The notes beneath the pieces were generated by a model. The model did no database searches, was not told the origin of the DNA, and saw only the letters and a list, made by a program, of their open reading frames with translations. A stretch of DNA of 64,000 nt from Minisyncoccota bacterium (GTDB lineage: Bacteria > Patescibacteriota > Minisyncoccia > Phycocordibacterales > JABAAK01). Below are positions 180-1,799 of the stretch, piece by piece. Numbering within the stretch: the first letter of the stretch is position 1; every line of letters begins with the position of its first letter. The stretch lies in assembly GCA_965204115.1 (NCBI GenBank), contig OZ241963.1:596622-660621 (forward strand), in the 5' to 3' direction. A program made the translations under genes and the position numbers.

Positions 180-1019
180 ATGAATATCAAAAAAGTAGTA
201 AAACGAAACGGGGTTGTGGTTGATTTTGATCGGGAGATTCTTGAGCGATCGTTGCTGCGCTCCGGTGCGGAGCGGGACCTCGCGCACCGCGTTGCGGTTG
301 ATGTGGAGAAGATTGTTCGGGATGGTGATTCCACGAGTTTGGTGTACAAGAAGGCGTTTGAGATGCTCTATGAGCGGTCGCGGTCAGTGGCGATGCGGTA
401 TTCATTAAAAAAGGCCTTGTTTAACTTCGGTCCGACGGGATTTCCGTTTGAAAAGTTTGTCGCCGAGCTGTTTCGGCGAAAAGGGTATGCCACTCAGACG
501 AATGTGCATTTGCGCGGCGGGTGTATTTCGCATGAGGTTGATGTGCTGGCGATCGGGGCGGAGCGGATTGCTATGGAGATTAAGTTTCATAATGATATGC
601 ATATTCGGTCGGATGTGAAGGCGGTGCTGTATGTGAAGGCGCGGTTTGATGATTTGCTGGGGCGGACCGGTTCGTCGTTCTCGTTTCGTAAGAAAGGCGC
701 GGTTGATAAGTGTGTCCTGGTTACTAACACTAAGTTCACGAAGAATGCACTTGCTTACGCTGAGTGCGCCGGGGTCTCACTGCTTGGTTGGGGGTATCCG
801 TTTCGTGACAACCTCCAGTCGTTTGTGCAGGAGGCGGATGCGCATCCGGTTACCTGCTTGCCCTCACTGTCGCTTTCACTTTTGCGCAATTTGTTTTCTG
901 AAGGGGTGGTAACCTGCAGAGGGCTGCTGGATCGGGATGATTTGCTCCGCGCCCTGCCGAACACCGATGCTATTGTTTCTGAGGCGAAAATGCTGTGCCG
1001 ACCGGGCGGTCAGCGATAA
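180..1019 (+). CDS. ATP-cone domain fused to a Mrr-like restriction-endonuclease catalytic domain
   Basis: The N-terminus VVKRNGVVVDFDREILERSLLRSGAERDLAHRVAVDVEKIV is an ATP-cone like that of NrdR/RNR. The central part FEKFVAELFRRKGY...LRGGCISHEVDVLAIG is an Mrr_cat-like fold. A TATACT hexamer at 166-171 lies 8 nt upstream of the ATG. Confidence 0.6.
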   Translation: MNIKKVVKRNGVVVDFDREILERSLLRSGAERDLAHRVAVDVEKIVRDGDSTSLVYKKAFEMLYERSRSVAMRYSLKKALFNFGPTGFPFEKFVAELFRRKGYATQTNVHLRGGCISHEVDVLAIGAERIAMEIKFHNDMHIRSDVKAVLYVKARFDDLLGRTGSSFSFRKKGAVDKCVLVTNTKFTKNALAYAECAGVSLLGWGYPFRDNLQSFVQEADAHPVTCLPSLSLSLLRNLFSEGVVTCRGLLDRDDLLRALPNTDAIVSEAKMLCRPGGQR

Positions 1020-1028
1020 TATTTTTCT

Positions 1029-1799
1029 ATGAATATACATGCAACACGCAAAAGGAATATTTTTGATCCGGTCAGTAAAGAGCCGTTCGCGCTTTCGCGT
1101 AGTAAGATAGATTTGTTTTTTCAGTGTCCGCGGTGTTTCTATCTGGATAGGCGGCTGGGTGTCGCGCCGCCGCGCGGTTTTCCGTTCAACCTGAATGATG
1201 CGATTGACTTGCTGATGAAGAAAGAGTTTGATCAGTATCGTGAGAAACAGGAACCGCATCCGCTGGTTGTCGCTGAAGGGTTGTCGCTTGTGCCGATGCA
1301 GCACGAGCAGTTGGAGGTATGGCGCAATCCGTTTAAGGGGGTGCGCTACCACCATCAGCCGTCAAACTTTATTGTGTCCGGAGGGGTGGACGATGTGTGG
1401 TGTGATGCCGACGGCACGGTCACCGTTGTTGATTACAAGGCGACAAGTAAGGACGAAGAGGTGACCATTGACGCCGGGTGGCAGGATTCGTATAAGCGGC
1501 AGTTGGAGGTGTATCAGTGGCTGTTTCGTAATAATGGTTTCACGGTTTCTGACACCGGGTATTTTGTATATGCGAACGGTGATCGGTCTGCTGACGATTT
1601 TAATGATGTGTTGCGTTTTAAAACAAAACTGATTCCGTATACCGGCTCTGATGATTGGATTGAGGATGCGCTGATGCGTGCTCGGGAGGTGTTATCGGGA
1701 GATGTGATACCGGAGGCAGGGAAGTGGTGTGATTTTTGTCCGTATCGGGATGCGGCAGGGAAGTCCTTTCGGGCGCATGTGCAGCGGGGCGCCGCGTAG
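1029..1799 (+). CDS. PD-(D/E)XK nuclease with a 4-Cys cluster (Cas4/RecB-like exonuclease family)
   Basis: It has an N-terminal CPRC, a VDDVWCDADGTVTVVDYKAT (D..D/ExK) core and a C-terminal CDFCPYR motif. This is a Cas4-like Fe-S arrangement. Confidence 0.5.
   Translation: MNIHATRKRNIFDPVSKEPFALSRSKIDLFFQCPRCFYLDRRLGVAPPRGFPFNLNDAIDLLMKKEFDQYREKQEPHPLVVAEGLSLVPMQHEQLEVWRNPFKGVRYHHQPSNFIVSGGVDDVWCDADGTVTVVDYKATSKDEEVTIDAGWQDSYKRQLEVYQWLFRNNGFTVSDTGYFVYANGDRSADDFNDVLRFKTKLIPYTGSDDWIEDALMRAREVLSGDVIPEAGKWCDFCPYRDAAGKSFRAHVQRGAA

Follow-up and report, generated by a model that had tools for sequence, protein, structure and literature searches.

Architecture and gene order of an ATP-cone/Mrr-type nuclease and a neighbouring RecB/Cas4-type nuclease in Patescibacteria

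Two nuclease genes stand side by side at the start of a stretch of 64,000 nucleotides from a Minisyncoccota (Patescibacteria) bacterium (contig OZ241963.1, positions 596,622 to 660,621), the whole of which is referred to here as the window. Gene A encodes an ATP-cone joined to an Mrr-type restriction-endonuclease domain, and gene B, immediately downstream, a PD-(D/E)XK nuclease of the RecB/Cas4 type. What does such a pair do? A preliminary description of the locus offered two answers, a defence system or a nucleotide-responsive DNA-processing unit, and the second is the best fit to the evidence given below. A and B would be conserved chromosomal housekeeping nucleases of a Candidatus Kaiserbacteria genome (Patescibacteria, the Candidate Phyla Radiation, CPR), transcribed together and probably with tyrS. 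The explanation that we tentatively favour is that A is an adenine-nucleotide-gated endonuclease which acts with a partner exonuclease in the controlled breakdown and salvage of nucleic acids, tied to energy or nucleotide state.

All characterised ATP-cones govern ribonucleotide reduction, as part of the enzyme or of a repressor (PMC9110341). Textbooks present the domain as the allosteric switch of ribonucleotide reductases (RNRs) and of their repressor NrdR, no other effector having been characterised, and a family in which it is wired to a nuclease would extend this switch to nucleic-acid degradation. A literature search for ATP-cones together with restriction endonucleases, nucleases or Patescibacteria found no study of the architecture of A, which is already present in databases under the names 'ATP cone domain-containing protein' and 'restriction endonuclease'. 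What would be new here is the combination of ATP-cone allostery with a ligand-gated PD-(D/E)XK nuclease, both of known kinds; that solo Cas4-like genes are enriched in CPR has already been published.

Domain architecture and predicted ligand site

The two open reading frames (ORFs) were confirmed, and their coordinates (Table 1) bear out the earlier account of adjacent genes separated by 9 bp. Pfam assigned to A both the ATP-cone and the Mrr-type nuclease of that account; a third domain, related to the C-terminal domain of the archaeal protein AF1548, had been overlooked. The match to the Pfam ATP-cone (PF03477) covers residues 4–49 and is marginal (26.3 bits against a cut-off of 25.8). Homologues of A score 28–36 bits over up to residues 1–75, a family profile aligns residues 4–74 to the ATP-cones of NrdR and Prevotella copri NrdD, and in an AlphaFold (AF2) model of A (pLDDT 90, pTM 0.84) the N-terminal ~80 residues superimpose on NrdR and RNR ATP-cones with a root-mean-square deviation of 1.7–2.1 Å over 78–84 residues (Foldseek). 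The marginal call is thus backed by homologue scores, family profile and model superposition, and the N-terminus of A is predicted to have the ATP-cone fold, with a β-hairpin roof and a four-helix bundle.

The modelled cone shares this fold with the solved cones of Streptomyces coelicolor NrdR (7P37), Escherichia coli NrdR (9FVR) and P. copri NrdD (8P28), together with the hairpin signature V-x-K-(R/S/A)-x-G-x-x-(E/V)-x-F and the aromatic and basic residues of the last helix. It differs from them in being fused to a nuclease and, in the window protein, in being approximately eight residues shorter and without equivalents of NrdR E56 and K62.

The nuclease core of A matches Mrr_cat (PF04471) over residues 87–202 with 31.5 bits against a cut-off of 21. 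Its catalytic residues D121, E133 and K135 were invariant in 198 of 198 family sequences, as were E119, C115, H118 and N183 across the same members, and the catalytic three correspond to D38, E51 and K53 predicted for AF1548 (PMC1821046). In the linker between cone and core, all members, CPR and non-CPR alike, have G84, P85, G87, P89, F90 and E91. E91 is likely the first acidic active-site residue, and we infer a catalytic role for it. Similarity to AF1548 from Archaeoglobus fulgidus, a structural-genomics protein of solved structure (1Y88), extends through both the core and the C-terminal domain: the sequence of A matched it over residues 93–257 (E=8e-22), the family profile over residues 92–274 (E=2e-42), and the model with a Foldseek E=3.5e-13 and a target-normalised TM-score of 0.75. 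The catalytic D-ExK is common to the two proteins. The 199-residue solved chain matches A from residue 92 (chain residue 22) onwards and so leaves no space for an ATP-cone. The Pfam model of the third domain (PF22357, AF1548-like_C) scored above its cut-off in three homologues of A (P0047, P0055 and P0113) and was not detected in window A; this helical domain is probably nucleic-acid-binding. Three cysteines, C115 (522–524), C196 (765–767) and C246 (915–917), are ~99–100% conserved family-wide and have equivalents in AF1548. A fourth, C226, is 77% conserved.

Residues that contact nucleotides are known for two ATP-cones. In S. coelicolor NrdR the inner ATP is in contact with K50, R51 and E56 and the outer nucleotide with K62 (PMC9110341), and the contacts in P. 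copri NrdD are Lys7, Arg8, Tyr83, Arg87 and Arg91 (PMC11226230). The cone of window A has K8, R9, F16, Y74, R73, K77 and K78. Among the 198 family sequences the hairpin lysine is 98% and F16 97% conserved. On the last helix Y74 is conserved, and so is the basic character of positions 73, 77 and 78. The hairpin (residues 7–21, window 198–242) occurs in two co-varying versions. The majority version, K-A..E-F...K (the E..K type, 85 sequences), is also that of E. coli NrdR except for a serine in second position (K-S..E-F...K); the other, K-R..V-F...I (the KR type, 37 sequences), is that of the window and resembles P. copri NrdD. Between the two the second basic residue is retained with its position shifted. 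The positions of NrdR E56 and K62 hold E and K in about two-thirds of the family, and V14 and I20 in the window subgroup. The almost invariant hairpin lysine, the co-varying second basic residue and the retained tyrosine and basic residues of the last helix argue for selection on a putative ligand site, and the alignment suggests a maintained ligand site in the cones of the A family. Those of the window subgroup may possibly hold one nucleotide instead of two.

B matched PDDEXK_1 (PF12705) with 57.5 bits against a cut-off of 22, and stayed below the cut-offs of both Cas4 models (TIGR00372, 36.1 against 65; PF01930, 14.2 against 22.7). Its motifs D122, D135-x-K137 and Q158-x3-Y162 are invariant in an alignment of 24 homologues. 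The QxxxY motif is a mark of RecB-type nucleases, and by its sequence B is assigned to that superfamily. A structural model of B (pLDDT 91) gave Cas4, the nuclease domains of AdnA and AdnB, RecE, MGME1, λ exonuclease and Exo5 as best fold matches, with TM-scores of 0.4–0.5; sequence searches of the PDB with the single protein and with a profile yielded chance matches only and no solved structure.

With Cas4, AddB, AdnAB, Exo5 and Dna2, B shares the D...DxK and QxxxY motifs and four invariant cysteines split between the N- and C-terminal parts. The canonical Cas4/AddB arrangement is C...CX2CX5C, with one N-terminal and three C-terminal cysteines. That of B is CX2C...CX2C, so that, of the Cas4/AddB-like four-cysteine nuclease originally described, the nuclease and the four cysteines stand and the spacing does not. 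The cysteines are compatible with an Fe-S cluster or with Zn. B differs from Cas4 also in its sub-cut-off scores, in falling into PDDEXK_1 and in having no adjoining cas1 or cas2; no cas genes were found in the 80 + 80 loci surveyed.

Gene order in Patescibacteria and the question of defence

A was found in at least 598 Patescibacteria species genomes, the best genome locus being in a Kaiserbacteria metagenome-assembled genome (MAG; 92% identity). A full-library profile search gave 653 clusters at 50% identity (E<=1e-30), almost all of them full-length proteins of 270–295 aa. B gave at least 7,996 matches, at ~55–60% identity, across Parcubacteria, Uhrbacteria and Peregrinibacteria, and is extremely conserved in Patescibacteria. 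This wide conservation fits the published enrichment and vertical inheritance of solo Cas4-family genes in the small genomes of CPR and DPANN (Hudaiberdiev et al. 2017, PMC5704561).

The surroundings of A were surveyed in 80 species-representative genomes out of the at least 598 matches. In at least 73 of the 80, A holds a stable position in a housekeeping array on a single strand, which begins with leuS, a gene for a protein with Sigma70_r4 and HARE-HTH domains, a gene for a DUF8128 membrane protein, YceG/MltG (once or twice) and sometimes MnmA, followed by A. The genes 3′ of A are variable and include DUF7282, MgtC, B, a short Ogt-type gene, a uracil-DNA glycosylase (UDG), an HD_3/YfbR-like gene, PCMT and an M3 peptidase; alaS comes last. 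The array spans many Paceibacteria families (loci L002–L080, L082 and L083) and is rearranged in the window lineage, where tyrS lies upstream.

A homologue of B was present within 6 kb of A in 37 of the 80 loci, with gaps of 14–2,109 bp, and in all 37 it was downstream and on the same strand. It was directly adjacent to A (<200 bp) in 13. Counted from ORF coordinates with a cut of <250 bp there were 15 adjacent loci, 13 with an E..K-type cone and two with the KR type, and of 67 determinable E..K-type loci 35 had B next to A or elsewhere in its array. In the window subgroup (KR-type cone, 50–92% identity) A and B adjoined in six of six loci, with tyrS or mnmA as the upstream gene. Five of these had gaps or overlaps between -14 and +14 nt, and the gap was ~43 bp in L002, where it was taken from the ends of tblastn matches. 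Several contigs of 2.3–2.6 kb appear to hold both genes, contigs of equal length recurring among the matches to A and to B. A survey from the side of B took in 40 metagenomic loci in which the upstream sequence reached at least 3 kb. A was present in only five, adjacent to B in each, and no other neighbour of B was conserved; an Uhrbacteria locus likewise had B without A. The two genes thus adjoin closely in a single lineage but only loosely or not at all in others, and B is an independent and more widespread gene.

Such counts invite the explanation that A and B function independently of each other and adjoin only as a by-product of gene order in Patescibacteria, which is highly conserved, tightly packed and on a single strand. 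The neighbourhoods of B homologues are mostly variable and without A; the steadiest neighbours of A are YceG/MnmA upstream and alaS downstream, with DUF7282 and MgtC genes coming and going between A and B; and short gaps or overlaps were common throughout the Patescibacteria genomes examined. We nevertheless consider independence distinctly unlikely. In the window subgroup the junction is kept while the flanks vary (tyrS or mnmA upstream; a mechanosensitive-channel gene, alaS and others downstream), B, where present, was downstream of A and on its strand in 37 of 37 loci, and in other phyla A pairs separately with a different nuclease (see below).

The gene after B in Paceibacteria usually encodes an Ogt-type protein of ~90–105 aa, consisting of the MGMT DNA-binding/active-site domain only with its PCHRV motif, and a gene for a family-4 or family-1 UDG comes next (L082:8001–9929 and many of L003–L080). 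B, the Ogt-type gene and UDG form a small DNA-repair cluster.

This arrangement would suit a repair or recombination pair, in which A would be a structure- or damage-specific endonuclease licensed by deoxynucleoside triphosphates (dNTPs) or ATP, B would process ends in the manner of Cas4, RecB or AdnAB, and the two would replace RecBCD/AddAB-type functions in a reduced genome. The fold neighbours of B listed above point the same way, some sources label A homologues as Holliday-junction-resolvase-like, and inheritance of both genes appears to be vertical, as it is reported to be for the solo Cas4 of CPR (PMC5704561). Outside CPR, however, A is linked to β-CASP nuclease, phosphorylase, synthetase and energy or stress genes and not to repair genes, A and B are apart in most lineages, and A carries no recognisable damage-recognition domain; we therefore regard a repair pair as unlikely.

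Could the genes instead be a two-component module against phages or plasmids, in which nucleotide depletion or a shift in dATP/ATP at infection frees the Mrr-type nuclease and B assists degradation? Ligand-gated PD-(D/E)XK nucleases are a typical kind of defence effector, and the core of A resembles those of Can2, Cdn1, MspJI and AspBHI. Can2, Card1 and Cdn1 of CRISPR and CBASS systems combine, like A, a sensor with an effector of the restriction-endonuclease fold, and the cores are similar (Foldseek E ~1e-3). Their sensor is a CARF domain, however, responding to cyclic oligoadenylates from the defence system, whereas that of A is an ATP-cone, with ATP or dATP as predicted ligand, in a housekeeping context. 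Mrr and MspJI/AspBHI have the Mrr_cat catalytic domain in common with A (Pfam, Foldseek), but A is not in a defence context and gave no match to Mrr_N, an SRA-like domain or any other modification reader, its N-terminus being the ATP-cone. Homologues of A outside CPR do occur on plasmids and in variable islands, and in one relative (L179) a restriction-modification pair lies ~2.6 kb upstream of A.

Weighed against these points, the other results make a defence module very improbable. In PADLOC-DB 2.0, A gave only a weak match to the Mrr domain of ZorD (16.4 bits) and B only matches to the Cas4 domain. No A homologue was found in 2.9 million IMG/VR contigs or in the phage records of INPHARED, and in PHROGs A gave nothing meaningful and B only generic exonuclease or Cas4-like matches. 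B was found on 15 IMG/VR contigs, at least three of which (L088–L090) also carry the cellular cell-wall gene YceG and are therefore probably misclassified Patescibacteria DNA; solo Cas4 genes have been reported to evolve as ordinary cellular genes (PMC5704561). The remark in the preliminary description that no methyltransferase is nearby was confirmed: annotation of the ten ORFs closest to the pair, and of another ten large ones at 12.7–42.7 kb, revealed neither methyltransferase nor defence genes. Its suggestion of defence was not, since the pairing of A and B is not consistently conserved, and orthologues of A lie in core housekeeping operons, within the leuS-to-alaS array and as tyrS–A–B in the window. 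The array position of A and its native composition tell in the same direction. An adjacent nuclease pair without a methyltransferase need not be a defence system, and A and B lie in core synteny.

The restriction-modification pair of L179, where A is 84% identical, consists of N6_N4_Mtase and RE_EcoO109I genes (L179:1734–3364) upstream of tyrS–A–B. No counterpart was found in the window, whose sequence starts ~180 nt upstream of A, and the pair looks like a local variable insertion outside the A–B unit. Acquisition of A and B as an island was also considered and rejected, as their composition matches the surroundings (GC 0.51–0.53 against 0.45–0.56 nearby).

Homologues outside CPR and a proposed function

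A search of plasmids with tblastn identified, in Criblamydia sequanensis and Pontibacter actiniarum, homologues that share the three domains of A at 37–38% identity. The non-CPR branch is large: with the Criblamydia homologue as query, a search retrieved at least 6,551 proteins (E<=1e-10). It includes the cultured Chitinophaga and Psychroserpens. In Criblamydia and Pontibacter, A heads a tight cluster in which it is followed by genes for a β-CASP/RMMBL metallo-nuclease, a ~500-aa archaeal-type protein of the thymidine phosphorylase (TP) family and a protein of the phosphoribosyl pyrophosphate (PRPP) synthetase (PRS) family. NCBIfam assigns the phosphorylase to PRK04350/TIGR02645 (506 bits with the AMP phosphorylase model, against a cut-off of 535) and the PRS-family kinase to PRK07199; the β-CASP protein is nearest aCPSF1 and Cas14.

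Nine non-CPR contexts were sampled, seven of them gene-called loci. The β-CASP nuclease gene was directly 3′ of A in six, with stop and start codons overlapping or abutting in L186, L187 and L189. Three contexts held the full four-gene cluster (Table 1), and a fourth had a TP gene nearby. The remaining three of the nine had an AAA_28 gene after A (directly in Chitinophaga, past a small ORF in Psychroserpens) or an unknown gene. The four-gene clusters are set among energy, stress and metal-resistance genes, and the non-CPR surroundings as a whole include Usp, GAPDH-like, PFK, DeoC, 2-hydroxyacid dehydrogenase, MgtC, CstA, phosphoketolase, acetate kinase and glycogen phosphorylase genes. MgtC has been linked to ATP homeostasis in other bacteria. 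A gene for a membrane protein of this family was seen just downstream of A in 28 Paceibacteria loci (among L004–L080) and upstream of it, within one gene string, in Psychroserpens (L184:3304–4572).

The families that follow A in Criblamydia, Pontibacter and the Bacteroidota MAG are those of bll3115–3117 of Bradyrhizobium, a contiguous trio of metallo-β-lactamase (MBL) β-CASP, PRS-family and TP-family genes that is co-induced by microoxia (PMC6515984). None of the three was near A in the window or in the CPR loci examined, and the idea that β-CASP, TP or PRS genes accompany A in CPR too was rejected, none being present anywhere in the 64-kb window or beside A in CPR loci; β-CASP genes appeared in two loci of the B survey only, never adjoining A. 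Association with β-CASP, phosphorylase and PRPP-synthetase-family genes in cultivable Bacteroidota opens the A family to genetics.

An ATP-cone endonuclease thus recurs with an exonuclease-type nuclease downstream, either Cas4-like or β-CASP, and sometimes with a phosphorylase and a PRPP synthetase, and it is this recurrence that leads us to favour nucleic-acid breakdown and recycling. A would be a uniform cross-phylum family of ~280 aa, made up of an ATP-cone, an invariant GPxGxPFE linker, an intact endonuclease core and a small helical domain. Its cone would bind an adenine nucleotide (ATP, dATP or ADP), and the ligand, as in RNR and NrdR, would alter how the protein oligomerises or how its domains pack, so that the endonuclease is switched by energy or dNTP status. 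Cuts made by A would then be processed by the exonuclease encoded directly downstream, which would be the Cas4-like, four-cysteine (Fe-S or Zn) B in the window and related Paceibacteria and the β-CASP nuclease in Bacteroidota and Chlamydiia. The presumed purpose is controlled breakdown of nucleic acid and its return to the nucleotide pools, in overlap with DNA repair, rather than phage defence, and it would be relevant where de novo nucleotide synthesis is absent. CPR bacteria need nucleotides from outside or from recycling, and a nuclease gated by ATP or dATP would bear directly on the management of that supply. Consistent with this, CPR arrays put A near B, the Ogt-like gene, UDG and the HD_3/YfbR-like gene of 5′-deoxynucleotidase type.

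A wider proposal can be framed, which we hold to be possible and somewhat less probable than the one above. The ATP-cone/Mrr/AF1548_C proteins would be cross-phylum adenine-nucleotide-gated endonucleases heading a recycling route, together with a partner exonuclease (β-CASP or B) and in some lineages with enzymes resembling nucleoside-monophosphate (NMP) or thymidine phosphorylase and PRPP synthetase, and would be turned on under energy or nucleotide limitation. They would then be the first ATP-cone effectors beyond ribonucleotide reduction, with a core survival function in nucleotide-auxotrophic CPR.

Several observations weigh against a role in breakdown and recycling. AF1548 (1Y88) is itself only a predicted nuclease (PMC1821046). 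The ATP-cone of window A has a marginal Pfam score and lacks the NrdR E56 and K62 equivalents. No B was found within 3 kb of A in 32 of the 67 determinable loci, and 35 of the 40 B loci were without A, so that the partnership is non-obligate and could stem from the conserved order of genes where genomes are compact. Homologues of TP and PRS are absent from the window and from every CPR locus examined, which makes the transfer of a salvage function an extrapolation at 37–38% identity, and the non-CPR sample comprises just nine contexts. The RMMBL domain of the β-CASP partner suggests RNA, and the substrate of A may therefore be DNA or RNA.

The tyrS–A–B region and its surroundings in the window

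A starts 16 nt past the stop codon of tyrS and is preceded by the ribosome-binding site GGAGGTG, on which grounds tyrS, A and B probably form one transcription unit. Terminator-like sites were sought between the three genes and none was found. Co-transcription of A and B, called probable in the preliminary description, is plausible given the 9-nt gap, the lack of a terminator-like site within it and the short gaps or overlaps (-14 to +5 nt) in relatives. The tyrS fragment in the window fell slightly short of the Pfam SYY_C-terminal cut-off (25.7 against 27 bits) and gave a weak S4 match, also below cut-off; the related locus L179 contains a complete tRNA-synt_1b gene that ends 16 nt ahead of A.

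Table 1. Positions of the genes, domains, motifs and putative signals of the tyrS–A–B region in the window, and of the four-gene clusters in other genomes
Feature	Position	Strand	Basis or remark
tyrS 3′ end, TyrRS C-terminal S4-like domain	2–163	+	Stop codon 161–163
Shine–Dalgarno-like site GGAGGTG	172–178	+	Within the 16-nt tyrS–A spacer; read from sequence
Gene A (279 aa): ATP-cone, Mrr-type PD-(D/E)XK nuclease, AF1548-like C-terminal domain	180–1019	+	Pfam, 1Y88 match, profile, model
ATP-cone of A, ~residues 4–80; hairpin K8-R9...F16, last-helix R73, Y74, K77, K78	189–419	+	Pfam, profile, Foldseek
Linker motif GPTGFPFE of A, residues 84–91	429–452	+	Most conserved stretch of the family
Mrr_cat core of A, residues 87–203; catalytic D121 (540–542), E133 (576–578), K135 (582–584)	438–788	+	Pfam
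AF1548-like C-terminal helical domain of A, ~residues 212–272	813–995	+	1Y88 alignment; model helices 232–272
A–B spacer, 9 nt	1020–1028	+	No terminator-like site found
Gene B (256 aa): RecB/Cas4-type PD-(D/E)XK nuclease	1029–1799	+	Profiles, alignment, model
N-terminal Cys pair of B, C33-x-x-C36 (CPRC)	1125–1136	+	Invariant in 24/24 homologues
Catalytic motifs of B, D122, D135-x-K137, Q158-x3-Y162	1392–1514	+	Invariant alignment columns (24 homologues)
C-terminal Cys pair of B, C234-x-x-C237 (CDFC)	1728–1739	+	Invariant in 24/24 homologues; codons checked
Weak terminator-like hairpin over the B stop codon	1786–1803	+	ORF after B on the opposite strand (convergent)
Four-gene A cluster, Criblamydia plasmid	L182:7998–12605		
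Four-gene A cluster, Pontibacter plasmid	L183:1972–6597		
Four-gene A cluster, Bacteroidota MAG	L188:7001–11648		

The genes of the window are housekeeping genes throughout (rplJ/rplL, FemAB, holB-like, alaS, GAPDH, rpe, hisS/proS-type, argS, leuS, dnaG and 16S rRNA). The neighbours of B are A, a membrane protein gene and rplJ/rplL; alaS lies at 10224–12188 and leuS at 26630–29017. Over positions 1–14000 the GC skew is strongly positive throughout (0.08–0.38) and the + strand carries nearly all genes, a pattern consistent with a leading-strand, highly co-oriented segment.

A second nuclease-type gene, at 7031–8518 on the - strand, encodes a DUF2779 protein of 495 aa that has a region resembling RNase_H_2 and, near its N-terminus, a CPR motif. 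Kinship between this protein and B was looked for by profile comparison and none was detectable (probability 0.2). A complete bacterial 16S rRNA gene is present at 16733–18194 (+), and 23S and 5S genes were not detected within the 64 kb, so the rRNA genes appear to be unlinked. A single tRNA gene was found, at 61905–61979. A giant ORF at 46508–58432 (+) encodes 3,974 aa, and in the Uhrbacteria locus L081 a gene adjoining B encodes a similar giant protein with Big_5 and PG_binding domains.

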